A stretch of 59,748 nucleotides of DNA, counting the filler, from Candidatus Desantisbacteria bacterium CG1_02_49_89 (GTDB lineage: Bacteria; Desantisbacteria; UBA1551), in assembly GCA_001871075.1 (NCBI GenBank). It is 4 parts of 4 records of this genome, joined end to end, with 100 filler letters (N's around TTAATTAATTAA, not from the genome) between each part and the next. Parts side by side here need not be neighbours in the genome. Positions count along the whole stretch, not along the records: positions 51,030 to 59,748 come from MNUP01000132.1; 3 more parts are not named here. One strand, given 5' to 3'. The notes below the pieces were generated by a model. It searched no databases and was not told the DNA's origin. It worked only from the letters and a program-made list of their open reading frames with translations. Positions 4,337 to 59,748 of the stretch are shown in pieces. Positions within the stretch are counted from its first letter, which is position 1; each line of letters begins with the position of its first letter. The translations under genes were made by a program, and so were the position numbers.

Positions 4337-5658
4337 ATGAAGCCCAACGTCCTGATAGTATTCACTGACCAGCAAAGATGGGATACGCTTGGCGTGCATA
4401 AAAATCCGATGGGCCTTACCCCAACCTGGATTTACTTGCGAAGGAAGGAGTGTTTTTCGAGAACGCGTTCACAAACCAGCCTTTATGCGCGCCTGCCCGC
4501 GCCTGCCTGCTGACCGGGCAGTACGCGACCACTCATGGCGTGTGGAGGAATGGGCCCCTGCTCAAAGCGCAGGACAACACCCTGGCGCACTGCTTCAAAA
4601 AAGCCGGGTACAGGACAGGATACGTGGGCAAGTGGCATCTTTACGACAAGGACCCCGGATACGTGCCGCCGCAGCACAGGGCAGGTTTCGCGGATTACTG
4701 GGTCGCCTCAAACGTGCTTGAATTTACATCCCATCCTTACGAGGGAACGCTTTACGATGGCTCCGGCAAAGAGGTGAGGTTTTCCGGTGTTTACAGGGTG
4801 GATTTCGTTACAGAGAAGCTCATAGAGTTCCTGGAGCAGGATGGCAATTCGCCATTCTTCGCGATGATCTCCTATCTTGAGCCCCACCAGCAGAACGACC
4901 TGAATAGAATGGTAGGTCCTGAAGGTTACGCGAAGAAATATAGGAACCCGTATGTCCCGCCTGACCTGCTCGCGCTTACAGGGGACTGGTTCGAGCAGCT
5001 TCCGGATTATTACGGCAGTATCGCCCGCATTGACGAGTGCCTGGGCAGGATAATCAGCGCGCTGAAGAAAAAGGGCGTTTTTGAAAATACAATAATCGTG
5101 TTCCTCTCTGACCACGGGTGCCATTTCCACACAAGGGTGGGGGAATACAAGAGGTCCTGCCACGACAGTTCGATAAGGATACCTTTCGTTATGCGGGGCC
5201 CGGGCTTCAACCGCAGGCTCGCGGTCAAAGAGCTTGTTGGGATAGTGGATCTTGCCCCGACCCTGCTTGAAGCTGCGGGATTACCGCAGGTTCCAGGAAC
5301 AATGCAGGGGAAAAGCCTTGTGCCGCTGGTTGACAGAAAAGCCGTAAACTGGGAAAATGAGATCTTCGTCCAGATAAGCGAATCGCTTATCAGCCGGGCG
5401 GTACGCACCGAGCAGTGGAAATATTGCGTGGCAACCCCTGACCGCAAAGGGCACGAAGCTCCTTCAAGCGATACGTACGCGGAATACCAGATGTATGACC
5501 TGTTCGCTGACCCGTGGGAACTGAATAACCTCGCAGGCAGGAACCAGTATTCCGAAGCAGCGGCTCATTTGAAGGAAAGGCTGATCGCGAAAATGGCTGA
5601 GGCAGGGGAGAAAGTACCCGAGATCCTCCCTTCAAAATTCAATACCTCCTGGGCCTGA
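4337..5658 (+). pseudogene. sulfatase, frameshifted near 4419-4424 (one base missing; possibly sequencing error)
   Basis: N-terminus MKPNVLIVFTDQQRWD in one frame; CAPAR, GKWHL and SDHG in the 4450-5658 frame; adding one base to ACCCCAAC restores GLTPNLDLLAKEGVFF. Confidence 0.85.
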
Positions 5659-5679
5659 GTGTAAATGTGCGGCTGAATT

Positions 5680-5898
5680 TAGAGTCAAAGAGTTCCGCCC
5701 AGCAAGATCGGCGGGCAGGCGCCGAGTCAGAGAGTCATAGTTAAAAGCGTGTCAACGTATCAGCGTATCAACGTGTCAACGCAACAACAAGGATTTTTAT
5801 TTAACCTGTGTTAACCTGTGGTTACAAATGCAGTTTACAAAGTTTACAGAGTTTACATAGTTTAGAATTCGTGGAAATTAGTGGAAATTCGTGGTTAA
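5680..5898. repeat. composite short-tandem-repeat block; right copy of the long inverted repeat
   Basis: Reverse complement of 2430-2640: 140 bp near-perfect, remainder differs in repeat-unit number. Confidence 0.95.
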
Positions 5899-6981
5899 AT
5901 GTGTGGTATTAATATGAATTCTTTTCCTTATACTTCCGCAATGATAAAGCCGGTGGGGGGCAGGTGCAATTTAAAATGCGCTTACTGTTACTACACCCAT
6001 CATAAAGGCGGCACAGATAAGGCGCTGGGCGTTTGCGAGACAACGGACTTCATCCTGGATTTTGCCAGGGCAGCGGGAAGGCCGGTCAGCATTGTTTTTC
6101 AGGGCGGTGAACCGCTGCTCGCCGGGATAAAATACTACGAAGATGTTTTTTCCGCAATAGCCGAAAGCCGGGTTCCGGCCGCATTTTCAGTCCAGACAAA
6201 CGGGCACTTGCTCACCGAAGATTTCTGCTCGCTCTTTAAAAAATACAATGTGCTTACCGGCATAAGCATAGACGGACCGAAGGAGATAAACGACAAAGCC
6301 AGGCCAGGCTCGTTTGAAAGGACAATGGGCGCGGTAAGGCTGATGCAGAAAACCGGCGTTGATTTCAATACCGTGTCGGTACTTGCGAAACACAATTATT
6401 CAGAAACAGGCGGAGTATATAATTTTCTGAAATCCGAAGGGTGTTTTTACCAGCAGTACATAACCTGTTTCCCGGATTTTTACTCTAAAGGGTGGTTCCT
6501 TTCGGGCGAAGAACTGGAAGGCGCGCTTGACACGCTTTTTAATTTATGGAAGACTGACTGGAAGGATGTTTTCATAAGGGAATTCGACGACCTGCTGAAA
6601 GCAAGCGCGGGCATCCCTGCCTCAGAATGCATGCTGGGCAGGCAGTGTGCCGGCGCGCTTACGCTTTCATCCGATCTTTCGCTTTACTACTGCGACGTGC
6701 CCTCCGTTCAGAAAGCGTTCGCCGGATATTATCCCTGCGACCTTGATAAGATCGCGGAAAGCAGAAAATGCCGGGACTTCATAAGGCGCAAATCGGTATT
6801 CCCGCAAGAATGCCGCAGGTGCGAATGGGTCTCCCTGTGCAACAACAGCTGCCCCGAGATGAGGGTTAGCGGGCTTTACCGTTACTGCAAGGCGATGAAA
6901 AACTTTTTTGAAAAGAACTCAGCCGTCCTTAAAATGATCGCAGAACAGGCATTGAGAAGAAAAGACCTTTTACGATTCTAA
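5899..6981 (+). CDS. anaerobic sulfatase-maturating radical SAM/SPASM enzyme (start may be 5914)
   Basis: IKPVGGRCNLKCAYC (CxxxCxxC), FQGGEPLL, QTNG, SIDGP, C-terminal CxxCx5CxxxC SPASM motif; adjacent to sulfatases. Confidence 0.85.
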   Translation: MCGINMNSFPYTSAMIKPVGGRCNLKCAYCYYTHHKGGTDKALGVCETTDFILDFARAAGRPVSIVFQGGEPLLAGIKYYEDVFSAIAESRVPAAFSVQTNGHLLTEDFCSLFKKYNVLTGISIDGPKEINDKARPGSFERTMGAVRLMQKTGVDFNTVSVLAKHNYSETGGVYNFLKSEGCFYQQYITCFPDFYSKGWFLSGEELEGALDTLFNLWKTDWKDVFIREFDDLLKASAGIPASECMLGRQCAGALTLSSDLSLYYCDVPSVQKAFAGYYPCDLDKIAESRKCRDFIRRKSVFPQECRRCEWVSLCNNSCPEMRVSGLYRYCKAMKNFFEKNSAVLKMIAEQALRRKDLLRF

Positions 6982-10112: not shown

Positions 10113-10212
10113 NNNNNNNNNNNNNNNNNNNNNNNNNNNNNNNNNNNNNNNNNNNNTTAATTAATTAANNNNNNNNNNNNNNNNNNNNNNNNNNNNNNNN
10201 NNNNNNNNNNNN
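10113..10212. other. artificial contig linker
   Basis: 44 N + TTAATTAATTAA (stops in all six frames) + 44 N. Confidence 0.98.
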
Positions 10213-11599: not shown

Positions 11600-11680
11600 C
11601 CGTCGTACGTCGAGCGTCTTACGTCGTGCGTTAAGGTCTTTTAAACGTACGACTTACGACGTATGACGTACGACGAAACG
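11600..11680. repeat. CGTCGTA/TACGACG heptamer hairpin element
   Basis: About 4 degenerate CGTCGTA units, a short spacer, then about 4 TACGACG units. Confidence 0.85.
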
Positions 11681-12683: not shown

Positions 12684-12685
12684 TA

Positions 12686-12790
12686 ATTATGAATGATGAA
12701 TTATGAATTATGAGTCAAAAGCATAAGGATTTATATTAAAATTAATTCCTTGCAGTTGATTCATAACTCATAATTCATAACTCATAATTA
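12686..12790. repeat. TTATGAA/TCATAAT heptamer hairpin element with AAGGA...TTCCTT core
   Basis: Homologous to 37431-37534, 45401-45500 and 49155-49253. Confidence 0.9.
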
Positions 12791-20124: not shown

Positions 20125-20129
20125 AAAAA

Positions 20130-24581: not shown

Positions 24582-24587
24582 TAACCA

Positions 24588-30697: not shown

Positions 30698-30797
30698 NNN
30701 NNNNNNNNNNNNNNNNNNNNNNNNNNNNNNNNNNNNNNNNNTTAATTAATTAANNNNNNNNNNNNNNNNNNNNNNNNNNNNNNNNNNNNNNNNNNNN
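30698..30797. other. artificial contig linker
   Basis: 44 N + TTAATTAATTAA + 44 N. Confidence 0.98.
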
Positions 30798-35995: not shown

Positions 35996-37437
35996 ATGGA
36001 AAGCCGGCAGGAAATGCCCAGGCAGGAACCTGGTAAAAGAATAAAAAACTTCAAGGAAGTTGCTTCCGGATACACCGAGGAACAGGCTCTTAAAGAGGCA
36101 TCCAGGTGTATTCAATGCAAGAAACCGACCTGTAAAGCGGGTTGCCCTGTTGAGATCGAGATACCTGAGTTCATAAAAGCTATAGCCGAAAAGGATTTTG
36201 CCAAAGCAATTGAGATCATCAAGCAGAAGAACAGCCTTCCCGCGGTATGCGGCAGGGTCTGCCCGCAGGAGAGCCAGTGCGAGAAGGTATGCGCGCTTTC
36301 GAAAAAATACGGGTCTGTGGCGATAGGCCGCCTGGAGCGTTTTGTTGCTGATCTGCAGATCAGCAACAGTATCAACGTGTCCCGCCCAACAAACGTTGGC
36401 GGGCAGGCGCCGTGTCAAAGTGTCAAAGTAGATAAAACGAAGGACGATGCACGATGCACGATGTTACGAAGGTTGCTATCGTGGGCTCTGGGCCCGCGGG
36501 CCTGACATGCGCGGGGGACCTCGCGAGAATGGGTTACAGGGTTACTGTATTTGAATCCCTGCATTCCACAGGGGGCGTGCTCAGGTACGGCATACCCGAA
36601 TTCCGCCTTCCGAAAGCAATACTGGATTTTGAAGTGGAAAGTATTAAATCCCTGGGTGTTGAAGTGAAGGTAAACGCGTTGATAGGCGGGAGCTATACTC
36701 TTGAAGACCTGTTCAAAGAAGGTTATAAGGCTGTTTTTATAGGGACAGGAGCGGGCCTTCCTTATTTTATGGGAGTAAAAGGCGAGAACCTGAACGGCGT
36801 GTATTCAGCCAACGAATTCCTGACAAGGGTTAACCTTCTGAAGGCGTATGAATTCCCGGAATACGACACGCCGGTCAAAATAGGGAAAAAGATCGCGGTG
36901 ATAGGCGCGGGGAACGTGAGCATGGACTGCGCGCGCGTTTCCCTGCGGCTCGGTGCAGAGGAGTCATGGATCGTTTACAGGCGCTCGGACGCTGAAATGC
37001 CCGCGAGGGCGGAGGAGATAGAGAACGCGAAGGAAGAAGGGGTCAAATTCAGCCTGCTCACGCTTCCTGTTGAGGTTTTGAGCGACGGAAAGAGCGGAGT
37101 GAGAGCTTTGAGATGCATAAAAATGAAACTCGGTGAACCTGACCAAAGCGGCAGGAAAAGGCCTGTTCCTATAGAAGGCTCCGAGTTCGACATGGATATT
37201 GACACCGTGATAGTTGCAATAGGCCAGGGCCCGAACCCGCTCCTGCCGAGGAAAACGCCGGATCTGAAAGTGACAAGCCATGGGAATATAGTTGCCGACC
37301 CCCAAACCGGAAAAACATCGATAGAAGGGGTTTATGCAGGCGGGGACATTGCCACAGGCGCGGCAACGGTCATAGAAGCAATGGGCGCGGGAAAACGCGC
37401 CGCCAGAGCGATTGATCAATACATAAAGAAATTATGA
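35996..37437 (+). pseudogene. nfnB: NfnB / NADPH-dependent glutamate synthase small-chain-like (often annotated gltA), split into two frames (35996-36505 and 36454-37437) by a repeat insertion in the domain linker
   Basis: N-part EASRCIQC..CKAGCP, CGRVCPQESQCE and GRLERFVAD; C-part KVAIVGSGPAGL, GIPEFRLP, GAGNVSMD and AGGDIATGAATV; frames differ. Confidence 0.9.
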
Positions 37438-37534
37438 ATTATGAATGATGAATTATGAATCAAAGGCATAAGGATTTTATTTGAAATAAATTCCTTGCAG
37501 TTGACTCATAACTCATAATTCATAACTCATAATT
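37431..37534. repeat. TTATGAA/TCATAAT heptamer hairpin element
   Basis: Near-copy of 12686-12790; first unit supplies the nfnB TGA. Confidence 0.9.
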
Positions 37535-37551
37535 GATTTTCAGGAGGAATA

Positions 37552-45399: not shown

Positions 45400-45400
45400 C

Positions 45401-45500
45401 AATTATGAATTATGAGTTATGAATTATGAGTCAAGGAATTTAGTTTAAAATAAAACTCCTTGTTGTTGATTCATAACTCAGCATTCATAATTCATAATTA
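45401..45500. repeat. TTATGAA/TCATAAT heptamer hairpin element
   Basis: Reverse complement closely matches 49155-49253. Confidence 0.9.
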
Positions 45501-48013: not shown

Positions 48014-49156
48014 ATGACATCGAAAGAAAGAATGCTGACAGCGATGCGGAACAAACAGCCGGATATGGTGCCGGTCGCGCCGGATATGTCCAACATGATC
48101 CCCGCGAAACTTACAGGAAAACCTTTCTGGGACATATACCTGTACAGGAATCCGCCATTATGGAAGGCGTATATAGATACGGTAAGGCATTTCGGCATCG
48201 ACGGATGGCTGGCCAGTATTGACGGGCAGATCTTTGATGATTATCCCCAGCCCGGCTACAAGACGGAAAACGTCATTGTTTTCAGGAATGAAGAGCGGAT
48301 AATAACCAGGGTGTATTCAGAAAAAGAAAAAGGGAAAAAAGAATGGTCCGATTTCATAACGGTATATTACGTGAAAGACCCGCCGACCTACCTTAAAGCC
48401 TCGAAGATAGGGATGCAGGCCCCGCCTGAAAAATGGTGGCAGATCGAGGGGGTAAAGCCGGAAAAAAAGGATGAAGCGCTCCTGGCTGAGGTTAAGGAAT
48501 ATATGGGCGATGACGGCGTGTCCGCGGTGGGATGCTGCCCGCCCCAGCTGAGCAACCCGGAAGGCGGCGGTTACTCGGTTTTTGACTATTACGACAGGTA
48601 CAAAGAAGTAAAGGAGTGGAGCGAAAGGGCCACGGAGGACATCCTCAAACGCCTTAGAAAGGTCCTGTCTTCCCCGTCAAGGCCGGATTTCATACTTACA
48701 GGCGGTTCCGGTATGCTTGTTTTTATGACTCCGAAAATAGTGCGCGATATTTCGTTCCCGGCGCTGAAAAAAATAACTACAATGTGCAAGGATGCGGGCG
48801 TCCCCACACAGATCCACTGCTGCGGGCCAGAAAGAGCGCTTGTGGAGATGTGCGCCAATGAAACAGACCTTACTTCCATAAATCCGCTGGAGATCCCGCC
48901 TATGGGGGACTGCGACCTTGCCGAGATAAAGAGATCATTCGGGAAGAATCTTTCCCTGATGGGCAACCTGCATACTACGGAAGTCATGCTGCGTGGAAAA
49001 GTCGCGGATGTTAAAAACGCCTCAAAGAAAGCGATTGACGATGCTGCCGCGGGCGGCGGGTTCTTGTTATCCACAGGTGACCAGTGCGGCAGGGATACAC
49101 CCGAGGAAAATATTTTCGCGATGGTGGAAACAGCGCGGTCTTATGGTAAATATTAG
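48014..49156 (+). CDS. uroporphyrinogen decarboxylase (URO-D/MtaA-CmuA) fold protein
   Basis: MTSKERML...PDMVPV, HCCG, PLE.PP.GD, LMGNL and GGGFLLSTG. Confidence 0.82.
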   Translation: MTSKERMLTAMRNKQPDMVPVAPDMSNMIPAKLTGKPFWDIYLYRNPPLWKAYIDTVRHFGIDGWLASIDGQIFDDYPQPGYKTENVIVFRNEERIITRVYSEKEKGKKEWSDFITVYYVKDPPTYLKASKIGMQAPPEKWWQIEGVKPEKKDEALLAEVKEYMGDDGVSAVGCCPPQLSNPEGGGYSVFDYYDRYKEVKEWSERATEDILKRLRKVLSSPSRPDFILTGGSGMLVFMTPKIVRDISFPALKKITTMCKDAGVPTQIHCCGPERALVEMCANETDLTSINPLEIPPMGDCDLAEIKRSFGKNLSLMGNLHTTEVMLRGKVADVKNASKKAIDDAAAGGGFLLSTGDQCGRDTPEENIFAMVETARSYGKY

Positions 49157-49253
49157 TTATGAATTATGAATGCTGAGTTATGAATCAACTGCAAGGAGTT
49201 TAAATTTTAAATAAATTCCTTGACTTATAATTCATAACTCATAATTCAGCATT
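49155..49253. repeat. TTATGAA/TCATAAT heptamer hairpin element
   Basis: Same family and core as the elements at 12686, 37431 and 45401. Confidence 0.9.
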
Positions 49254-50929: not shown

Positions 50930-51029
50930 NNNNNNNNNNNNNNNNNNNNNNNNNNNNNNNNNNNNNNNNNNNNTTAATTAATTAANNNNNNNNNNNNNNN
51001 NNNNNNNNNNNNNNNNNNNNNNNNNNNNN
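50930..51029. other. artificial contig linker
   Basis: 44 N + TTAATTAATTAA + 44 N. Confidence 0.98.
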
Positions 51030-52782
51030 ATTCAATTTCTGGGCTGTTCTTCTGGTGGTCCTTTCGCTCTTCCTTAATATATGGGGGATAAACTGGGGCG
51101 TGCCTGATGACGAAAGGATAAGCCTTGTGTTCGGCAGCAGGGAAATAATTTCTGGGATATCCGGGATAATGAAGGAAAGCAGGGATGATATCCGCAGCCA
51201 GCTGGAAAGCCCTCTCCAGGAGCAGAAGTATGAGGAAAAAAGCATAGGGCTTGACATGAAAGGAAAAACCGTTCATATACCGCGCTCCCAGCTCGACGGG
51301 GCGCGTTCTTTCCTGATACGTTCTTACGGGGGAGACGAGCAAAGGCCGCTCGTGAGCCTCAGCGGCATGAAACCCGGGAAACTCGATCTGAACCCGCGTA
51401 TGTATTTCTACGGCGGTTTTTACCTTTACGGACTGGGAGCTTTCCTTAAAATGCTTTCTGTATTCAAGCTGGTCACAGTGCAGTCAAATTCCGCTTACTA
51501 TTTTATCAACCCCTCGGAAATGGGAAAGATCTTTATCGCGGCGAGGGCCTACAGCGCAATATTCGCGAGCCTTGCGGTCTACCTGATGTATATGATCGGC
51601 GCCCTGCTCTTCAACAGGAAGACCGGCCTGATAGCCGCGCTGTTCTTCTGTCTAACTCCCGGGGTCGTTCTATGGAGCCACTACCTTAGTCCATTCGCTT
51701 TCACGCTTTTTTGGCTGAACCTTTCGCTGTATTTCTGCGCGCAGATATACAAAACAGGTAGGTTCAGGTATTATATTCTTTCAGGGGTCTTTGCCGGCCT
51801 TGCTTCGGGAGCCCTCATCCATTACGGGTACGTGCTGCTTGGTGTGCCTTTGGCGCATTTCCTGAGAAGCGTCAAGGAAGGGAATGGCATCCTGCTTTCG
51901 CTTAAAAAGATATTCTCAAAGAAGATACTTATTTCCCTGTGCCTTTTCCTCGCGTGTTTCCTGGCGGTCAATCCTTATTACGTGATATCCCTGAAAACAA
52001 TGATCGCCGAATTCCGGCACGCGAAGCAGTGGTGGAGATCGGAGTATTCGCCGCGTAACTGGGCGTATCATTTTGTAAAAGTGCTTCCGTACCAGTTCGG
52101 CTGGCTCATCTGGATAGCCGTCGCGGCAGGCCTGGTTTTTGCCGCCGCAAGGCATACGGCCGAGGATATATTTTTCCTCGCGCTTACCGTGCCGCTCTAT
52201 ATCTACATCAGTTCCAGCACCACGTATTACGCGCATTACGGCCTTCCGCTTGTGCCTTTCATGTTAATGCCGGCGGCCGCGATGCTGGGAAGGGAAGGCG
52301 GCTTTCCGGGCAAAAGAATAGCGTTTTCGGCGTTCATTGCCGCGATCGCGCTTTATACTTTCGCGCTGGACGTTTCATACGACAGGATATTCGCGGGCGT
52401 GAATATAAGGACGCAGGCAGGCAGGTGGATTGATAAAGAGATACCGAAAGGCAGTTCTGTAGGCATGCTGGAAACACCTTCTCCGTGGAGGACCCCTCCG
52501 ATCAATCCTTTCAGGTACAGGATCGTTGTAACCGCAAGGGACAGCAAGATACTGGAAAAAGAAAGGCCCGAATACTATTATATCAACGAGTTCCAATGGA
52601 TGAGGGGGGTGAGTTTCCCGGTTGTGCGGGATTTCATTTCGGGATACGAAGAGATAAAAAGGTTCGAGCAGAGGCCGCGGCTTTTCGGGATCACCCTTGT
52701 TTCCGGCAAAGACCAGCCCTGGGACTGGCCGTCGCCGAACCCGCTTATGATAGTATATAAAAGAAGAGCTCATGGCTCATAG
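51030..52782 (+). CDS. GT-C fold (ArnT/PMT-like) membrane glycosyltransferase, 5'-partial
   Basis: GINWGVP, DE, LNP..YG, AR, multiple TM helices, NPY and R..A..WI...P.G; open from the contig start. Confidence 0.72.
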
Positions 52783-52862
52783 CTCATAGCTCATAGTCAA
52801 ACTGATAAAAGATAGCTCATGGCTCATAGCTCATAGTCAAACTGATAAAAGATGGCTGATGG
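52767..52862. repeat. AGCTCAT heptamer array, left arm of the four-helix-bundle element
   Basis: Two tandem blocks of (AGCTCAT)n + TCAAACTGATAAAAGAT; contains the upstream TAG stop. Confidence 0.9.
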
Positions 52863-52880
52863 TAAAAACAAGAGGGTACG

Positions 52881-53258
52881 GTGGCGAAGAGAGAAATACA
52901 TTTTAGTTTTGAAAATTTAGAGGTCTGGCAAAAGGCAATTACTTTTGCTGATACTGTTATTGATATAATCGATAAACTTGAGACAGACAGGAAACATTAT
53001 AGGCTGATCGAACAGCTGGAATCGTCAGTTACTTCAATAGCAATGAATATCGCAGAGGGAAAGGGCAGGTTTTCAAAGAAAGAATTTGCAAAGTTTCTTT
53101 ATATTGCCAGAGGTTCCCTGTTTGAATCCGTTGCTTTAATGGAGATTTTTAAAAGAAGAAGGTGGGTTGCCGAAGACCAGTATGATAAATTTTATAATGA
53201 CGGAAATATAATAGGGAAAATGCTGACAGGTTTGATAAACTCAATAAAAAGCTCTTAG
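52881..53258 (+). CDS. four helix bundle protein (23S rRNA IVP / Avd-like family)
   Basis: FENLEVWQKA, QL..S..SI.MNIAEG.GR, F.KFLYIARGSL.E and KML.GLI motifs; AT-rich. Confidence 0.92.
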   Translation: MAKREIHFSFENLEVWQKAITFADTVIDIIDKLETDRKHYRLIEQLESSVTSIAMNIAEGKGRFSKKEFAKFLYIARGSLFESVALMEIFKRRRWVAEDQYDKFYNDGNIIGKMLTGLINSIKSS

Positions 53259-53270
53259 TCTTTTGTTTTT

Positions 53271-53330
53271 GCTATGAGCTATTAGCTTTTAATTTTTAGC
53301 CATGAGCAATGAGCTATGAGCTATGAGCCA
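53271..53330. repeat. ATGAGCT heptamer array, right arm of the four-helix-bundle element
   Basis: Reverse complement of the left-arm unit. Confidence 0.9.
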
Positions 53331-53339
53331 GGAGTATCC

Positions 53340-54134
53340 ATGACTGAATTTTCATTCGGCAGGAACTGGGACCAGTTCATTAAGAACTACCTGACTGAGG
53401 AAAGGGTTGAGGCCGCGAAAAAGCATATCCTGGATTTCTTGGAAATTCCCGACCTTAAAGGCAGGTCCTTTCTCGATATAGGCTGCGGGAGCGGGATACA
53501 TTCGCTTGCGGCCCTGAAAGCCGGCGCCGCGAAGGTCATAAGCTTTGACGTGGACCCGTATTCGGTCGAAACCACCCGCAGGGTCAGGGAAATGTCCGGC
53601 AGTCCTGAAACATGGGATGTCCTTTCAGGCTCAATACTGGATGAAAAATTCCTTTCAGGCATAAGCCTGGCTGATATCGTGTATTCCTGGGGGGTGCTGC
53701 ACCATACGGGGAATATGTGGAAGGCAGTGGAAAACGCGTCAAGGTTCATTAAGGATAACGGTATTTTTTACGTGGCGCTGTACGTGACAACGCCGAAGTC
53801 GGATTACTGGGTCAGGATAAAGAAAAGGTACAATACGGCTTCATCAGCCGGCAAGGCTTTCATGGAGCAGTGGTATATGTGGAGGCATCTCATAATACCG
53901 TATTTCATGCGCTCCAAAGACCCGCTGAAATACATTCTGGAATACAAACAAAAAAGAGGCATGTCTTATTTCACCGACGTAAAAGACTGGCTTGGCGGTT
54001 ACCCGTACGAACACGCGAAGATCGAGGAGGTCCTGAAATTCTGCAGGGAAAAACTGGGCCTTGAACTGGCCGGCCTCGGTACCGGGGAAGCGTGCATAGA
54101 ATACCTTTTTAAGAAAAGCGGGAAGCGATCCTGA
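53340..54134 (+). CDS. class I SAM-dependent methyltransferase
   Basis: AGGAG RBS; FSFGRNW, FLDIGCGSG, YSWGVLHHTG and DWLGGYPYE. Confidence 0.88.
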   Translation: MTEFSFGRNWDQFIKNYLTEERVEAAKKHILDFLEIPDLKGRSFLDIGCGSGIHSLAALKAGAAKVISFDVDPYSVETTRRVREMSGSPETWDVLSGSILDEKFLSGISLADIVYSWGVLHHTGNMWKAVENASRFIKDNGIFYVALYVTTPKSDYWVRIKKRYNTASSAGKAFMEQWYMWRHLIIPYFMRSKDPLKYILEYKQKRGMSYFTDVKDWLGGYPYEHAKIEEVLKFCREKLGLELAGLGTGEACIEYLFKKSGKRS

Positions 54135-54178
54135 AAAAGAGCGGAGATCCCGTATTAAATACAGGCTGAAAGACTAAG

Positions 54179-55294
54179 ATGGATAAAATAAAAATACTTT
54201 ATATTATAGCCACGCTTGATATCGGCGGGACCGAAAAGCAGCTTTTCGAGCTTGCGAAAGGGCTTGACAGGAAGAAATACGAACCGGTTGTGTGCTGCCT
54301 TACGCGCAGCGGCCCGGTTGAAAAGGACCTGCGGGATCGCGGCATCAGGGTGATCGAGGCAGGGAAGAAAGGCAAGCTGGATTTCGGCTTTTTATTCAAA
54401 CTGGCAGGGATAATAAGGCGGGAAAAGCCCGGGATAGTCCACACGTTCCTGTGGACATCCAATACCTGGGGCAGGATCGCCGCGATGTTCGCGGGCGTGC
54501 CGGTCATCATTTCCAGCGAAAGGAGCACCGATTACTGGAAGGGATGGTTTGAATTCCTTATAGACTGGAAACTATCGCTCTTTACGAAAAAAATTATCGT
54601 CAATTCTCTGATAGTGAAGAAATTCATAGGATCCAGAGGTATCAGCGAGAAGAAGATCGAGGTTGTCCCCAACGGCATCGACACTTCCCTGTATGGGTCC
54701 CTGCCTGGTCCGTCGCAGGCAAAGAAAATGCTGGGACTTGACCCTTTAGCGCCTGCGGTCGGTTTTGCGGGCAGGCTTTGCAGGGAGAAAGACCCTTTTG
54801 TTTTTGTAAGGCTGGCCGCAGCGGTACTGAAGGAAAAAAGCGCGCAGTTTGTTATTGCCGGGGACGGTGAAATGAGGGGCGGGGTCGAAGCGCTTGCAGG
54901 GTCCCTGGGAGTGAAAAAGAACCTGAGGATACTCGGCTACAGGAATGACATGCCGCTGGTCCTGAGCGCGATGGACGTAGTGGTCCTAACGTCATTATGG
55001 GAAGGGCTTCCGAACGTGCTTATCGAAGCCGGCGCCGCCGCAAAACCGGCGGTCACCTTAAATGTCGGCGGGGCGGGAGAAGTGGTGGAGGACGGCAGGA
55101 CGGGTTTTGTGGTCCCTGTTTCCGACGAAAAAGGCCTGGCCGAAAAGGTGCTTGTGCTTTTGAAGGGTCCGGCGCTTTGCGCGGAAATGGGCGCCGCGGC
55201 AAGGCAGCGCGTGGAAGAAAATTTTAAGCTTTCAAAAATGATAAGCATGACCGAGGCGATCTACAGCGCTGAACTGCAAAAAACAGCGCGCTGA
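54179..55294 (+). CDS. glycosyltransferase family 4
   Basis: GGTEKQL, VPNGID, GRL..EK and EGLPNVLIEA (E-x7-E). Confidence 0.92.
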   Translation: MDKIKILYIIATLDIGGTEKQLFELAKGLDRKKYEPVVCCLTRSGPVEKDLRDRGIRVIEAGKKGKLDFGFLFKLAGIIRREKPGIVHTFLWTSNTWGRIAAMFAGVPVIISSERSTDYWKGWFEFLIDWKLSLFTKKIIVNSLIVKKFIGSRGISEKKIEVVPNGIDTSLYGSLPGPSQAKKMLGLDPLAPAVGFAGRLCREKDPFVFVRLAAAVLKEKSAQFVIAGDGEMRGGVEALAGSLGVKKNLRILGYRNDMPLVLSAMDVVVLTSLWEGLPNVLIEAGAAAKPAVTLNVGGAGEVVEDGRTGFVVPVSDEKGLAEKVLVLLKGPALCAEMGAAARQRVEENFKLSKMISMTEAIYSAELQKTAR

Positions 55295-55370
55295 TTTTTA
55301 AATGCGGGCAGCAGTTTCTCAATGAGGAGGGACTGGTAAAATGGGAGAATTGAGGAACAGCGGAGGATAT

Positions 55371-57275
55371 ATGTGCGGGTTTTGCGGGATCCTTGAATTC
55401 GGCTCGGGAAGCATAATAACCGAGGAGCTTTTGAAAAAAATGTGCGCGGTGCTCCAGCACCGCGGGCCTGATGACCAGGGCATATACATAAAAAGGAAAG
55501 ACGGGGTGAGGCTGGGCCTGGGTCACAGGAGGCTGGCCGTCATAGACCTCAATACCGGGCGGCAGCCCATTTCCAACGAGGATGATACCATCTGGGTTGC
55601 CTACAACGGCGAGATATACAATTTCATGGAGCTGAGGGAAGGGCTTGAGAAAAAAGGGCACAGGTTCAAGACCCGGACCGACACGGAAGTGATAGTGCAC
55701 CTTTACGAGGAGCACGGGACCGGCTTCGTCAGGTTCCTGCGGGGTATGTTCGGCATAGCGCTGTGGGACGAGAAGGAAGAACGCCTGGTCCTTGTAAGGG
55801 ACAGGATCGGCAAGAAGCCCGTCTGCTACGCGCTGGCCCCGGGCAGGCTTATTTTCGCGTCCGAGATAAAATCGATACTTGAGGTCCCCGGGATAAGCAG
55901 GGAGGTGAACCTTACCGCGATGCACCATTTCCTGACCTACCAGTACGTGCCGTCCCCGATCTCGATCTTCAGGGGCATTTCCAAGCTGCCAGCCGCGCAC
56001 ATGCTTGTCTGGGAGAAAGGGAGCGCGAAGGTCGAGAAATACTGGGAGCTTGATTACGGCGCTAAAATAAAGATAAGCCCTGCCGAAGCGCAGGAAAGGA
56101 TAATCGGCGAGTTCAGGGAATCAACGAAGATGAGGCTTGTCAGCGACGTGCCGCTCGGTGCTTTCCTCAGCGGCGGCATAGATTCAAGCGCAGTGGTGGC
56201 GATGATGTCGGAGCTCATGCCGAAGCCTGTCAAGACTTTTTCAATAGGTTTTGAAGAGCAGGATTTCTCCGAGTTGAAATACGCCAGGATGGTCTCAAAA
56301 ATGTACGGGACAGACCACAAGGAGCTCATAGTGAAGTCCCCGAATGTCCCGGAGCTGCTCCCGAAGCTGGTCTGGTATTACAACGAGCCCTACGCGGACT
56401 CCAGCGCCATCCCGACTTACTGCGTTTCGAAGATGACCAGGGAGCACGTTACGGTCGCGCTCAACGGGGACGGGGGGGACGAGAATTTCGCCGGGTATCC
56501 CAGGTACCAGCAGAGGAAGCTTGTCGATACAGTTGCAGGGCTGTATAATATACTGCCCGGGTTTAAAAAGAACTGGATCAGCAGGATAGCGGGATCGCAG
56601 GCGTCCCGCAGCGCGTTCTGGAGGAAGGTAAAGTGGGCCGCGCAGGCTTCAGGCATGAGCCCGGAAAGAAGGTACGCCAGGTTCATGACGGTCTTCCCCA
56701 ACGATTACAAGGAAAAGCTGTATTCCGACACGCTGAAAAAAGAGCTTGCGGGAATGGATTCAATAGACCTGCTTGCGGATGCCTGTTCAAGGGTGAAGGC
56801 AGATAATATTGTCGAAAGGATCATAGGCAGCGACATAATAACGTATTTGCCTGACTGCCTCTGCGTCAAGATGGACATAGCCGCTTCCGCGAATTCGCTT
56901 GAAACAAGGGCGCCCCTTCTTGACCACAGGTTCATGGAGTTCACGGCAAGCCTGCCCCCGGGCTTCAAGCTTAACGGCTTTACCACGAAATACGTTTTCA
57001 AGAAGGCGCTTGAGAAATACCTGCCTAAAGAGGTCCTTTACAGGAAGAAAATGGGGTTCGGCGTGCCCATAACGCACTGGTTCAAAAAAGACCTTAAGGA
57101 TTACGCGCGCGGCATACTGCTTGGGGAAAGCGCGAAGCGCAGGGGCTATTTCAGGACGGAATACGTGAAACAGCTGCTGGACGAGCACGCCTCCGGGACC
57201 GCTGACCATACGACCAGGATCTGGGCGCTCCTGAACCTTGAGCTGTGGCACCAGGTTTTTATAGATGCGAAATAA
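55371..57275 (+). CDS. asnB: asparagine synthase (glutamine-hydrolysing)-like amidotransferase in a polysaccharide locus
   Basis: GGAGG RBS; N-terminal MCG, HRGPD, NGEIYN, LSGGIDSS, GDGGDE and KMGF. Confidence 0.93.
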   Translation: MCGFCGILEFGSGSIITEELLKKMCAVLQHRGPDDQGIYIKRKDGVRLGLGHRRLAVIDLNTGRQPISNEDDTIWVAYNGEIYNFMELREGLEKKGHRFKTRTDTEVIVHLYEEHGTGFVRFLRGMFGIALWDEKEERLVLVRDRIGKKPVCYALAPGRLIFASEIKSILEVPGISREVNLTAMHHFLTYQYVPSPISIFRGISKLPAAHMLVWEKGSAKVEKYWELDYGAKIKISPAEAQERIIGEFRESTKMRLVSDVPLGAFLSGGIDSSAVVAMMSELMPKPVKTFSIGFEEQDFSELKYARMVSKMYGTDHKELIVKSPNVPELLPKLVWYYNEPYADSSAIPTYCVSKMTREHVTVALNGDGGDENFAGYPRYQQRKLVDTVAGLYNILPGFKKNWISRIAGSQASRSAFWRKVKWAAQASGMSPERRYARFMTVFPNDYKEKLYSDTLKKELAGMDSIDLLADACSRVKADNIVERIIGSDIITYLPDCLCVKMDIAASANSLETRAPLLDHRFMEFTASLPPGFKLNGFTTKYVFKKALEKYLPKEVLYRKKMGFGVPITHWFKKDLKDYARGILLGESAKRRGYFRTEYVKQLLDEHASGTADHTTRIWALLNLELWHQVFIDAK

Positions 57276-57279
57276 ATAT

Positions 57280-57474
57280 AACCACGAATTACTCGAATTA
57301 CACGAAATAAGCATGAGAACAAGGCAGGACCTTTCAAGTTTTTAATTTCGTGAAATTAGATTAATTCGTGGTTAAAGTACTATTAAAAAACTAACGCAAC
57401 CACGAATTTCACGAATTACTCGAATTAGGCAATGGAGAAGATTTACTTCGTGAAATTAGATTAATTCGTGGTTA
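57280..57474. repeat. two AACCACGAATT...AATTCGTGGTT 9-mer hairpin elements upstream of the GxxExxY gene
   Basis: Arms about 57280-57308/57344-57373 and 57398-57426/57446-57473. Confidence 0.9.
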
Positions 57475-57488
57475 AGGTGTATAAAATA

Positions 57489-57902
57489 ATGCAACGACGA
57501 CTTTTTCAGCTTACGCGAATTGCTAAAAACAAGAACATAGTATATAAAGAGCTGAGCTATAAAGTGATAGGCGCAGCTATGGAAGTTCATATAAATTTGG
57601 GTCCGGGTTTTCTTGAGTCTGTTTATGATGAAGCCTTCGGCATTGAATTAAAAAGGATCAATCTGAGATTTGAATATCAAAAGGACCTGAGGATATTTTA
57701 TAAAGGGGAAAAATTAGCAAAAGAGTTCAGGGTTGATTATATGATAGAGGATAAAATCCTTGTAGAAAATAAGGCTGTAAAAGTAATAACGGAAATCGAG
57801 GAAGCGCAAATGCACAATTATTTAAAAGCTACAGGTTTAAAATTGGGCATAATTATAAACTATGGTTCGCCTTCGTTGGAATATAAAAGAATCGTAAGGT
57901 AG
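57489..57902 (+). CDS. GxxExxY protein (PD-(D/E)XK-like fold); start uncertain (57468 or 57489)
   Basis: IGAAMEVH..LGPGFLESVY (GxxExxY), RVDYMIE..ILVENK, AQ..NYLKATG and G.IINYG. Confidence 0.92.
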   Translation: MQRRLFQLTRIAKNKNIVYKELSYKVIGAAMEVHINLGPGFLESVYDEAFGIELKRINLRFEYQKDLRIFYKGEKLAKEFRVDYMIEDKILVENKAVKVITEIEEAQMHNYLKATGLKLGIIINYGSPSLEYKRIVR

Positions 57903-58020
57903 AAATTCGTGGTTTCTTAACAGGCAACTACGAATCAATCGAATTGCACTAATTAAGTATAAGAACGAGGTAAGCTTTTTTGAGCTTTTAAAATTTGTGA
58001 AATTCGTGAAATTCGTGGTT
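57903..58020. repeat. ACGAATT/AATTCGTG 9-mer arrays downstream of the GxxExxY gene
   Basis: AAATTCGTGGTT directly after the stop; a further hairpin at about 57926-58020. Confidence 0.85.
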
Positions 58021-58031
58021 AAGGTCTTAAA

Positions 58032-58709
58032 ATGAAAAATATAGTCATACTCGCGTACCACAGGATCAATGACTCGGGTGCAGGCGTCCTGGACGTGCCA
58101 CCTGAAAATTTCAAAAGGCAGCTGGAATGCCTGCTGGCAGGCGGTTACACGGTGGAAAGCGCGGAGGACATTGCGGGAAGGATACTTCGCAACCGTTATC
58201 CTGAGAAAAAAACGGCGGCGATCACATTCGACGACGGGCACAAGGATAATTTCAGCAATGCCTACCCGGTGCTGAAAAAAATGGGATTGCCCGCAACCAT
58301 TTTCCTGACGACCTCATTCATGGACACGGAGAATTTTCTTTCGTGGGACGAAGCAAGGGAAATGAGCGGGGGCGGCATCTCTTTCGGCGGGCATACGGTT
58401 ACCCATCCGCGCCTGACCCGGATCCGGCCAGAAGAGGCTAAGGAAGAAATATTGAGATCAAGGCAGGAGATCGAAAGCAGGCTGGGAAAGCCCTGCTCCT
58501 GTTTTTGCTATCCTTACGGGGATGTCAATGAAGCGGTCAAGCAGCTTGTAAGGGAATGCAAATACTCATCGGCGGTTGTAACACCCCCGAGGCGCGGGAT
58601 AGGCGAAGACATACTGTGCCTGAAAAGGATCGGAATTTACCGCCACACGGATATGCTGCAGTTCAGGCTGAAGCTGTGGGGCGTTTATTCATGGCTGAAA
58701 GGCAGGTGA
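58032..58709 (+). CDS. polysaccharide deacetylase (NodB/CE4-like)
   Basis: ILAYHRI, ITFDDG, GGHTVTHP and FCYPYG. Confidence 0.9.
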   Translation: MKNIVILAYHRINDSGAGVLDVPPENFKRQLECLLAGGYTVESAEDIAGRILRNRYPEKKTAAITFDDGHKDNFSNAYPVLKKMGLPATIFLTTSFMDTENFLSWDEAREMSGGGISFGGHTVTHPRLTRIRPEEAKEEILRSRQEIESRLGKPCSCFCYPYGDVNEAVKQLVRECKYSSAVVTPPRRGIGEDILCLKRIGIYRHTDMLQFRLKLWGVYSWLKGR

Positions 58710-58717
58710 CATGGATA

Positions 58718-58806
58718 TGAAGTTAAAAGTTCCCGCCCCGATAAGATCGGGGCGAGGTCTCGCCCGCTGAAAGACGGGCGGAAAAGGTTAAAGGTTAAAA
58801 GTTGAA
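58718..58806. repeat. GTTAAAA heptamer array interrupted by a GC double hairpin
   Basis: Hairpin at 58732-58781; its right half is the reverse complement of 18156-18184 with one mismatch. Confidence 0.85.
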
Positions 58807-59635
58807 AACAGAAAATTGCAATTTTTGCGGGACGAAAGGCGCTAAGGTGTGGGGTGACGGGCAATACGAGGCGCTTCGCTGCGGCAAATGCGGAGTGGTA
58901 TGGGTGAGCCCGCAGCCCGGAGAAAAACAGCTGCGGGACATATACACCGGGGATTATTACCGAAGGTGGTACCTGAGCTTTGAGGAAAAAAGAAAGGAAT
59001 ATTTCAGGGGAAGGCTTAAGGCGGCCGAAGACGTTCTTTCCGTAAAGAGAAGCCCGGCCGCGGCACGCGGAAGGCTTCTGGATATCGGATGCGGGGTGGG
59101 TTTTTTTCTTGAAGCCGCGAAGGAAAAGGGCTGGGAAGCCGAAGGGACCGAAATTTCGGATTTCGCGCGCGAATACGCCGGGAAAAAAGGTTTCAGGGTT
59201 TACGCCGGCTGTGAAGGACTTAAAGACAGTTCTTTTGAAATGGTCACCATGATGGATGTTCTTGCACACGTCACTGATCCTGCCGGGTACATAAACAAGG
59301 CAAAAGCCCTTCTGAAGAACGGAGGAGCCCTTGTCATAAAGACACCGGACCATCCGGCAGGGCTTTTCAGGATGGCAGGGATCTTTTCTTTCACGGGACG
59401 CTCCAGGGCGCTTCTGCACATTCCCGCCCAGCTTTTTCACTTTGACCCGGGAAATCTTACCGGCGTTGTGGAAAGGTCGGGCCTGCGGGCGGTCAAGACC
59501 GAAAAAGTCCGGGAAGCGCTGAGGGGCGGCTGGACATCCTCATGCCTGAAGAACTCGCTGGTGAAACTGTTTAACGCCGCTGCTTCCGCGGCTGGCATCG
59601 GCGAAAGTTTCATGCTTTACGCGATAAAGCCATGA
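58802..59635 (+). CDS. class I SAM-dependent methyltransferase with N-terminal Zn-ribbon
   Basis: CNFC...CGKC, LLDIGCGVG, DVLAH..DP and IKTPD. Confidence 0.85.
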   Translation: MKTENCNFCGTKGAKVWGDGQYEALRCGKCGVVWVSPQPGEKQLRDIYTGDYYRRWYLSFEEKRKEYFRGRLKAAEDVLSVKRSPAAARGRLLDIGCGVGFFLEAAKEKGWEAEGTEISDFAREYAGKKGFRVYAGCEGLKDSSFEMVTMMDVLAHVTDPAGYINKAKALLKNGGALVIKTPDHPAGLFRMAGIFSFTGRSRALLHIPAQLFHFDPGNLTGVVERSGLRAVKTEKVREALRGGWTSSCLKNSLVKLFNAAASAAGIGESFMLYAIKP

Positions 59636-59748
59636 TAATTTTGACACTGATTTCCACTGATCTTTTCTGTGTAAACCAGTGCGTAAATTCAGTGACAGGA
59701 ATTTTGTTTTTTGTAATATTATTAACCGAAAAAGTAAGATCTGTGCCA

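Follow-up and report, generated by a model that had tools for sequence, protein, structure and literature searches.

A candidate mobile cassette formed by a four-helix-bundle gene and its cognate inverted heptad arrays in a Desantisbacteria polysaccharide operon

Why should a small AT-rich gene stand between two host genes of a polysaccharide operon, with an array of degenerate seven-letter repeats on one side and the inverted array on the other? The question was raised by a 59,748-nucleotide stretch of DNA from Candidatus Desantisbacteria bacterium CG1_02_49_89 (assembly GCA_001871075.1), referred to here as the window, which consists of four contigs of one draft genome (C52, C53, C54 and C56) with N spacers between them; C56 corresponds to positions 51030–59748. 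The segment at 52767–53334 is one copy of a promoter-less cassette, made up of a four-helix-bundle (4HB) gene and two inverted arrays of about 4–5 degenerate heptads. Comparison of sequences from many phyla suggested that the gene and its cognate arms are probably one horizontally mobile unit. The cassette and the host genes on either side of it are arranged as follows.

51055–52782, + strand: PMT_2-family glycosyltransferase, upstream host gene (PF13231, E 9e-9)
52767–52857, + strand: left arm of (A/G)GCTCAT heptads, two 40-nt modules (heptads plus AGTCAAACTGATAAAAGAT)
52852–52880, + strand: inner 5′ segment, which holds the cassette gene's own Shine-Dalgarno-like AGAGGG before the GTG start
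52881–53258, + strand: 4HB gene (PF05635/TIGR02436), 125 aa, GTG start
53260–53282, + strand: inner 3′ segment, complementary to 52852–52874
53271–53334, + strand: right arm of ATGAGC(T/C) heptads, reverse complement of the left arm, with the AGGAG of the downstream gene in its last bases
53340–54134, + strand: class I S-adenosylmethionine methyltransferase, downstream host gene, 264 aa, starting 6 nt past the right arm

The open reading frame (ORF) at 52881–53258 matched the PF05635 profile over its full length (E 3.3e-30, 104.9 bits, cut-off 33.8) and the TIGR02436 profile with similar strength (E 3.1e-30, 104.6 bits, cut-off 24). Analysis with Tandem Repeats Finder (TRF) gave AGCTCAT ×10.3 at 52767–52836 and a 40-nt higher-order unit ×2.1 at 52775–52857 for the left arm, and GCTATGA ×8.3 at 53271–53328 for the right arm. 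The outer pairing joins 52769–52794 to 53309–53334 (26 nt, 96% complementary), a second pair of arm segments covers 34 nt (85% complementary), and the inner pairing of 52852–52874 with 53260–53282 (23 nt, 78% complementary) spans the ribosome-binding region of the cassette gene. When the RNA of 52750–53345 was folded the arms were paired with the ORF in the loop, giving a free energy of −172.8 kcal/mol and a z-score of −5.4, and none of 100 shuffles folded as well. The GC content was 0.354 for the 4HB gene and 0.366 for the whole cassette, compared to 0.513 for the upstream and 0.498 for the downstream gene (neighbours about 0.50–0.53). A first-pass annotation of the window had described an AT-rich 4HB gene with (AGCTCAT)n to its left and (ATGAGCT)n to its right, whose transcript could fold with the gene as the loop of a long stem, and the arrays, the composition and the fold were all confirmed. 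A scan by consensus alone found no promoter-like site in the cassette and a single terminator-like site, which lay inside the upstream gene and not within the cassette.

Three further assemblies of this organism differed in the copy number of the left arm, with one module of 3 heptads in L182, 3+3 heptads in L183 and 4+3 in both L189 and the window, and the right arm was constant. Arrays of this kind gain and lose units in natural populations. At a locus of Deltaproteobacteria bacterium UBA6106 (L106) the left arm upstream of the 4HB gene is a module of about 52 nt (heptads plus spacer) repeated five times, a larger counterpart of the 40-nt duplication in the window, and repeats of a higher order, composed of array plus spacer, are also present at three other loci of the Desantisbacteria genome (C23, C6 and C96).

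The structure predicted for the window protein from a 35-row alignment contained four long helices and had a mean pLDDT (predicted local distance difference test) of 94.5; as modelled, the protein is an up-down four-helix bundle like 2gsc and 2rld. Comparison of the model with family structures using Foldseek gave template modelling (TM) scores of 0.88/0.94 for 2gsc and 0.79/0.87 for 2rld (range 0.78–0.88); a separate search matched 2gsc with an E value of 1.4e-10. The Avd protein of a Bordetella phage retroelement was more distant, at a TM score of 0.74 and 14% identity for 4dwl and 0.74–0.75 for 4dwl and 8ub7 together. These values bear out the earlier statement that the family includes the intervening-sequence (IVS) proteins of 23S rRNA and is structurally related to Avd. 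Both 2gsc and 2rld have five chains on record, and the S23p protein of Xanthomonas is a homopentamer (Lin 2006, as cited in a passage of PMC4990558). The invariant polar residues of the window's protein family are Q45, S52, N56, E59, S79 and E82.

Arms around a single gene prove nothing alone because arrays are ubiquitous in this genome, and the family was therefore compared with all other genes. The 2.48-Mb draft contained 1043, 530, 413 and 330 TRF rows of period 7, 8, 9 and 10 respectively, compared to 37, 72, 44 and 82 in the shuffled genome, and 865 of 1593 intergenic spacers carried an array when delimited with a crude ORF caller. Enclosure was scored as the ungapped inverted match between 170-nt flanks with a threshold of 14. 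This threshold was reached by five of the nine called ORFs at 4HB loci and by 53 of 2218 other genes (p = 1.2e-6), so that the enrichment of arms around the family, which the first-pass annotation had put forward as a check, is present. Ten PF05635 loci were found in the genome, the tenth of which (C25) is cut by a contig end and was left out of the scoring; complementary arms scoring at least 12 were present at seven of the remaining nine, each with its own unit. Units at the 4HB loci of this genome are CAGTGAT, ACGTCGT, GTCATGG, AGCTCAT, ACGTGTA, AAATTGT, GGTTAAA, GCGTGTCA and others. Two copies are broken (C125 and C114), one by an internal stop and one by the lack of an in-frame N-terminus.

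The other enclosed genes are mostly small and selfish-looking, and include Y1 transposases (with palindromes), DUF559 genes (with direct hairpins) and GIY-YIG genes (with duplicated tRNA pieces). The small GIY-YIG genes are located within or next to tRNA genes and have a duplicated tRNA piece on each side (C74:10875–11117, C122 and C81:19821). High enclosure scores of ordinary enzymes (PfkB, AP_endonuc_2, MGDG synthase and ABC) were rejected, as they were caused by two hairpins of the same family in adjacent spacers and not by one hairpin.

The association was then followed beyond the Desantisbacteria. Sixty unrelated genomes were sampled for PF05635 and 23 were positive; arms scoring at least 12 were present at 17 of 26 loci from these genomes, and arrays of period 6–10 were 4.7-fold denser within 160 nt of the gene (3.85 per kb) than in the remainder of the same 3.3-kb loci (0.82 per kb). 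A scan with the window's protein, using one genome per species, gave 133 relatives of which 80 were kept. Sixty-six loci had a complete gene and 200-nt flanks, and among these the arm score was at least 12 in 50 and at least 16 in 36. The paired segments had a median length of 32 nt, equivalent to 4.6 heptads. Since words shared between loci contaminate a null made from cross-locus shuffles, co-variation of arms and protein was measured by an identity-binned comparison of 97 loci, in which two loci were taken to share arms at a direct match of at least 12. Arms were shared in 70.7% of the 215 pairs with at least 60% protein identity, in 26.7% of the 258 pairs at 50–60% identity and in about 2% of the 4183 pairs below 50%.

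The gene of the window belongs to a clade of 22 proteins (support 97/92), the closest homologues having 52–64% identity. Besides the Desantisbacteria the clade is found in at least nine named phyla, among them Aminicenantota, Bacteroidota, Ignavibacteriota, Myxococcota, Thermodesulfobacteriota, Chloroflexota, Planctomycetota and Balneolota, with further members from unplaced metagenome-assembled genomes and other 'Deltaproteobacteria' and with Scalinduaceae among the closest homologues. The arms of the closest homologues are built from AGCTCAT, GGCTCAT, AGCTCAA, AGCTGAA or AGCTGAT, and GCT-type heptads were found at 21 of the 22 clade loci under a stricter rule. Sub-clades have words of their own (GCTCAT; GCTCAA/GCTGAA; GCTGTT), and the branching of the clade ignores the host phylogeny. 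Pooling of 172 heptads gave R-G-C-T-[C/G]-A-[T/A], in which positions 2–4 were fixed by the search. Other protein clades are accompanied by different words, such as GTCCACN in Ignavibacteria, Zixibacteria and Chloroflexota, GGTTGAT/GGTTTAT in Bacteroidales and GTTTTAG in Geobacter and a Desulfosarcina relative. No homologues of the window's two neighbouring genes were found at the loci of the 80 relatives, and the spacers between arm and gene were unalignable by eye among the clade loci. As silent DNA is saturated at such divergence, the heptad word appears to be constrained at the level of its sequence and not only of its pairing. The word belongs to the cassette rather than to the host site, and co-varies with the protein clade across phyla.

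Filled and empty forms of the same junction were found around two cultured hosts with 11–12 copies each, Gracilimonas mengyeensis DSM 21985 and Desulfosarcina alkanivorans PL12. In G. mengyeensis a cassette (L121) lies between two sugar-nucleotide genes; the same junction is empty in three congeners (G098, G119 and G110), where spacers of 16–50 nt contain no arrays, and in a fourth (G101) is occupied by a different 4HB clade with GTTGAGA/GTTTAGC arms. In D. alkanivorans an AGCTGAA-type cassette (L120) lies between two export-cluster genes. Among its relatives the junction is empty in two (G066 and G067), holds two further clades, each with its own arms, in another two (G082 and G088), and in three more (G086, G077 and G063) contains arms or nested arrays without a gene, including one right-arm remnant of the AGCTGAA type. 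A copy of the L120 element with 70% nucleotide identity lies on another contig of G086, and in one Desulfosarcina relative the element is 3 kb from the junction. Junctions that are filled, empty or refilled in this way are characteristic of an insertable element that favours one type of site and decays to gene-less hairpins. The comparison of filled and empty alleles was another check named in the first-pass annotation. Gene and arms fixed in synteny across distant relatives, which by that annotation would have refuted the idea, were not found. The copies of the cassette also decay, either through breakage of the gene or by leaving arms without it.

At the window's own junction no empty allele was found, as a scan of the metagenome for the methyltransferase returned three contigs of the same organism, all of them filled. 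More distant methyltransferase homologues (48–72%) lay in other contexts. At L201 a solo AGCTCAT array follows secA without a 4HB gene. The window region had no match in one genome of the same order, and an RNA run yielded only two short pieces, 90–95% alike, in the methyltransferase gene. Two candidate joints were rejected: one in X3 that skips 505 positions, with a 27-nt side and 14 foreign letters, is probably another hairpin rather than an excision, and one in X8 that joins opposite strands is best read as an assembler fold-back.

The enrichment around the family, the clade-linked heptad and the filled and empty junctions together support the mobile part of the earlier suggestion that gene plus arms are a mobile or self-propagating unit. 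Several results weigh against it. Convincing arms were absent at 16 of the 66 complete loci, and the cross-locus null for arm pairing is heavy-tailed, with 56 of 400 at 12 or above. Profile and structure searches recognised no recombinase or nuclease motif and no known transposase fold in the 4HB protein. No target-site duplication could be resolved in the filled and empty pairs, the compared species being only about 77% identical, and contigs of three DNA runs contained the filled form only, with no transposition, excision or circle junction seen. The ten paralogues of the Desantisbacteria genome are mutually diverged, which indicates that there was no recent burst in this genome. No RNase III gene with PF14622 or TIGR02191 was found in this 93.5%-complete genome. 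Signs of selection for pairing in the RNA were slight, with G:U outnumbering A:C pairs in the arms by 48 to 36 (not significant) and a modest advantage in stability for the sense strand (25 of 35 loci, p = 0.018). Finally, the commonest gene-less hairpin family of the genome, described below, had no array pair with a cassette-size loop.

Two proposals were made for how such a unit could work. The first is that the protein made from the cassette recognises the heptads of its own arms, most likely in pentameric form with a protomer for each heptad; we consider the chances of this evenly balanced. Heptad reading would account for a word that is conserved at 55–65% protein identity when the spacers are not. 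The second proposal, that the paired arms loop the gene out and so allow insertion at low cost or restore the coupling of the host genes, is possible but held with less assurance. The arms would pair in the operon transcript, leaving the cassette gene looped out and bringing the upstream stop next to the downstream Shine-Dalgarno sequence, and a ribosome finishing the upstream gene would open the stem at its base, releasing the downstream AGGAG. The cost to the host operon would be small because the upstream stop adjoins the downstream Shine-Dalgarno sequence in the fold. In the window the last five codons and the TAG stop (52780–52782) of the glycosyltransferase lie inside the left heptad array, and the downstream AGGAG pairs in the stem with bases that a ribosome terminating at this stop would cover.

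The placement of other copies is similar. The 4HB gene is co-directional with its upstream neighbour at 55 of 60 loci and with its downstream neighbour at 57 of 63, the upstream stop is located within the paired 5′ arm or at most 10 nt before it at 20 of 41 loci, and the downstream start is at most 25 nt past the 3′ arm at 26 of 47. The cassette lands after the stop of one gene and ahead of the ribosome-binding site of its co-directional successor, and many copies sit in sugar-nucleotide or polysaccharide clusters.

Such placement would also be expected of an RNA element that benefits the host, as a processing or stability signal or as a translational coupler, with the protein a heptad-binding autoregulator of polysaccharide operons and ordinary gene transfer and recombination the only means of spread. 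The abutment of stop and start codons on the arms, the downstream AGGAG paired in the stem, the co-directionality (92% upstream and 90% downstream) and the many copies in polysaccharide clusters are all consistent with this, and heptad arrays serve as operators for the plasmid repressor omega. We nevertheless consider it improbable, since the cassette is patchy among close relatives, one junction has been refilled by different clades, copies are broken or frameshifted (C125 and C114) and the composition is foreign. The contexts across phyla are also non-homologous, so that an insertion step is needed in any case.

Movement in trans was considered as a further alternative, with Y1 (IS200/RAYT-like) transposases working on the folded arms in the manner of REP/REPIN (repetitive extragenic palindromic) systems. 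The Desantisbacteria genome has ten Y1_Tnp matches, seven of which are themselves enclosed by inverted repeats, and Y1_Tnp occurs in 19 of 23 PF05635-positive genomes compared to 18 of 37 others, a weak association (p = 0.013). Four genomes of 93–100% completeness (G032, G036, G045 and G057) have well-formed cassettes and no Y1_Tnp match, however, the Y1 genes of the Desantisbacteria genome are flanked by palindromes of their own and not by heptads, and a heptad specific to the clade suggests that its cognate reader is encoded in cis, all of which make this explanation quite improbable. The Y1_Tnp genes of this genome have two layouts: the longer ones (about 221–231 aa; C13, C100, C38 and C114) have 20-nt GGGAC-type inverted repeats on either side, and the shorter ones (152–188 aa; C23 and C111) lie between inverted tandem arrays of 25–40-nt hairpin units, a REP/RAYT-like layout.

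A very improbable alternative is that the arms are ordinary intergenic hairpins of the host, and that only the gene is mobile and prefers to land in hairpin loops. The abundance of arrays in the intergenic spacers favours this, as do AGCTCAT hairpins without a gene on three contigs (C84, C106 and C121), and in the part of PMC4990558 that treats their position 23S IVSs replace the tips of rRNA helices. Against this, the word stays with its protein clade in other phyla, period-7 arrays are few in samples of G004, G005, G010 and G028 (0–12.5 per 100 kb), and empty orthologous junctions exist without any hairpin (L282, L283, L284 and L286). The least probable of the alternatives is an RNA-level element, whose stem would be cut by a double-stranded RNA endonuclease as happens in 23S IVSs and whose excised, end-paired RNA would return to DNA through a resident reverse transcriptase for which the Avd-like protein is the cofactor: the fold does resemble Avd, which works with reverse transcriptase and RNA, the long stem is significant and RVT_1 occurs in 10 of 23 PF05635-positive compared to 7 of 37 other genomes (p = 0.075), but RVT_1 matches are absent in 13 of the 23 cassette-bearing genomes, the only match in the Desantisbacteria genome is weak, partial and on contig C119 rather than C56, and the genome showed no RNase III. 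Both co-occurrences, of Y1_Tnp and of RVT_1, were weak, and many genomes with cassettes had a match to neither.

Hairpins of the same architecture without a gene are spread through the window. The first-pass annotation had listed nine such sites, of which seven folded as long hairpins with z-scores of −3.5 to −9.2; the site at 24585 was weak (z −2.5) and that at 20125 was not significant (z −1.2). The best characterised are the following.

12684–12790, + strand: AATTATG-family hairpin, z −9.2
37429–37535: AATTATG-family hairpin, z −6.75
45400–45500: AATTATG-family hairpin, z −6.77
49156–49250: AATTATG-family hairpin, z −6.7
11600–11680, + strand: gene-less hairpin of ACGTCGT-type heptads, z −6.0, a unit that flanks a 4HB gene on contig C39
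10255–10330, + strand: gene-less hairpin of AGATCCT heptads, z −6.5

The units at the nine sites are not all different, as had been claimed: those listed at 12686, 37431, 45401 and 49155 are copies of one element of about 110 nt with a mean column identity of 82%. The relation of the gene-less hairpins to the cassettes was measured through shared words. Among 2271 arrays lying away from the genes, 503 had three or more 9-mers in common with the arms of one of the ten 4HB copies, compared to 84 for a control of reversed arrays; for the arms of GxxExxY genes (see below) the corresponding figures were 91 and 54, a weak signal. Another 12 contigs carry AGCTCAT arrays, and 9-mers from the arms of the window cassette recur in 29 arrays. 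The commonest family, AATTATG/CATAACT, accounts for 103 TRF rows. Its loops measured 36–65 nt in 20 of 26 left-right array pairs and none of the 26 had a loop of cassette size, so that no gene-bearing AATTATG copy was seen in the assembly. Samples of 40–81 kb from other genomes gave 30 period-7 rows per 100 kb in G027, 9.8 in G001 (a genome of the same order as the window's host, without 4HB or GxxExxY genes) and 2.5 in G005, compared to 42 here, a trend that is suggestive but comes from samples that are too small.

The earlier reading of the empty hairpins as non-autonomous derivatives was thus supported only in part. About 22% of arrays share words with 4HB arms and gene-less remnants occur at a cassette junction, and for a fifth to a quarter of the gene-less arrays the reading is plausible; the AATTATG family without a gene-bearing copy, and the 8–10-nt arrays that go with GxxExxY genes, speak against it. 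No sign of mobilisation of gene-less hairpins in trans appeared in any comparison made, which counts against the derivative claim. Tentatively, the gene-less heptad hairpins that share words with cassettes may be deletion derivatives or copies mobilised in trans.

Larger inverted arrangements were also observed. AATTATG arrays lie 5.4 kb (C36:5027–10508) and 3.2 kb (C86:1112–4406) apart with three ordinary genes between them, and may be solitary arms or gene-carrying giant hairpins. Within the window, sulfatase-family genes at 2655–4139 and 4450–5658 lie between inverted repeats at 2429–2641 and 5676–5899, which comprise 180 nt at 96% complementarity plus a 34-nt pair, with arms 3034 nt apart. 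These repeats are built of nested 8–10-nt arrays and a unique 50-nt segment, and the whole may represent a giant hairpin that carries genes, a segment capable of inversion or an insertion into the loop of a nested hairpin. The N spacers of the window are at 10113–10212, 30698–30797 and 50930–51029, and 12 bases interrupt each of them. The starts of contigs overlap the ends of other contigs (C40 and C7), which indicates that the assembly breaks at repeats, and an operon across the window is valid only inside each contig piece.

A second kind of cassette lies downstream on the same contig.

57279–58021, + strand: sister cassette, a GxxExxY/PDDEXK_3 gene between inverted CACGAATT-type arrays

The GxxExxY gene at 57468–57902 (TIGR04256, E 1.8e-40) has a GC content of 34% and arms of 29 nt that are 90% complementary, with two extra gene-less hairpins upstream. 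Three of the five GxxExxY genes in this genome reached an enclosure score of at least 14 and the other two have short inverted flanks by eye. Most of the 19 loci inspected in other phyla have the same layout, with units of about 8 nt that are nearly always AACCAC..CACAGAGN / CACGGAGN / CGCAGATN / CGCAAAGN. GxxExxY genes were present in 9 of 23 PF05635-positive genomes and in 5 of 37 others. Like the 4HB cassettes these units consist of an AT-rich gene of about 130 aa and inverted short-period arrays, lie in co-directional operons and have gene-less copies. They differ in having a PD-(D/E)XK nuclease fold and about 8-nt units that in most of the phyla sampled are of one general type (AACCAC..CACRGAN), and because GxxExxY loci use units of this one type the 8–10-nt arrays of the window are attributed mainly to the GxxExxY system.

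If the heptads are read by the protein, the consequences could extend beyond this genome. The S23p/IVS protein would then be a sequence-specific heptad reader, with one protomer of the pentamer for each heptad, and the engine of a new class of mobile elements that do without a canonical transposase, and the cassettes with their gene-less shells would be the source of much of the heptamer excess of bacteria; in this full extent the proposal is doubtful. If true, the excess so explained would include the cyanobacterial short tandemly repeated repetitive (STRR) sequences, GGGAATC and the roughly 1000 arrays of this genome, and paired arms would let the element sit in operons and rRNA almost free of cost. 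Three subjects would be joined: a protein family of unknown function that was structurally solved in 2006–2007 and is homologous to Avd, the origin of rRNA IVSs, open since about 1990, and the over-representation of heptamers. For annotation, the cassette accounts for AT-rich genes of about 120 aa and arrays of hairpins that interrupt operons, those for polysaccharides and others, with the caution that the copy number of arrays varies within populations. The clade-specific heptad also provides a handle for comparing cognate with non-cognate binding. A literature search found no paper that in general connects PF05635 or TIGR04256 genes with short-period arrays at their flanks and, in agreement with the first-pass annotation, no described mechanism.

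Among known systems the 23S IVSs are the closest in protein. In the passages of PMC4990558 that describe it, the Coxiella burnetii IVS ends in a stem of 28 bp that RNase III cuts, and carries 2–3 GACAGAT heptamers before the S23p start, the number of which varies between strains; there ORF-bearing 23S IVSs, including those of Leptospira (Ralph and McClelland 1993, as cited), are called selfish and possibly mobile, without a known mechanism. The cassette resembles these IVSs, as described there, in the protein family in the loop, the terminal inverted repeats with a stem of about 28 bp and the heptamers of Coxiella, and in the window complementary termini form a long stem with an ORF in the loop. 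The differences are that the cassette lies between protein-coding genes (glycosyltransferase and methyltransferase) instead of in an rRNA helix, has whole heptad arrays on both sides with a word that is clade-specific across phyla, and has abundant gene-less relatives. Three loci from the Candidate Phyla Radiation had no cassette copy inside rRNA by Rfam, which found tRNA only. IVS-style excision is unsupported in the Desantisbacteria because no RNase III gene was found; this absence, if true, is unusual for a bacterium. Only fragments of this packaging are in print, such as the heptamers of the Coxiella IVS.

[quoted passage not shown] The REP/REPIN elements with their RAYT (Y1) transposases, reportedly the subject of work by Nunvar in 2010 and by Bertels and Rainey in 2011, also consist of a small gene between inverted copies of a repeat that is clade-specific and is dispersed without the gene in spacers, as the AGCTCAT arrays are here. 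The cassette differs in carrying a 4HB gene and not an HUH/Y1 gene, and tandem heptads and not a single palindrome that contains a conserved tetranucleotide. The 4HB cassettes have spread horizontally over many phyla, whereas most RAYTs occur in single copy and are passed on vertically.

With Avd the cassette protein shares the four-helix-bundle fold, and Avd acts in a ribonucleoprotein with RNA, as described in part of PMC10053308. No reverse transcriptase, template or variable repeat lies beside the cassette gene, however, the neighbours of which are sugar-metabolism enzymes, and by sequence the protein belongs to the IVS branch of the family. The arrays themselves most resemble the heptamer repeats of other bacteria, such as the GGGAATC repeats of Xanthomonas with 70–75 convergent pairs (Rehm 2015, PMC4692102) and the TAACTGA repeats of Beggiatoaceae (MacGregor 2015, PMC4679880). 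As far as the consulted parts of the sources describe them, these repeats and the cyanobacterial STRR sequences are degenerate tandem heptamers in spacers, often in inverted pairs capable of forming stem-loops, with variable copy number and patchy spread, and the tandem degenerate 7-nt units of this genome likewise fill non-coding spacers at a density far above chance. In the relevant passages of the GGGAATC and TAACTGA papers the arrays are not tied to any gene, while in the cassettes described here the clade of the gene predicts the word.

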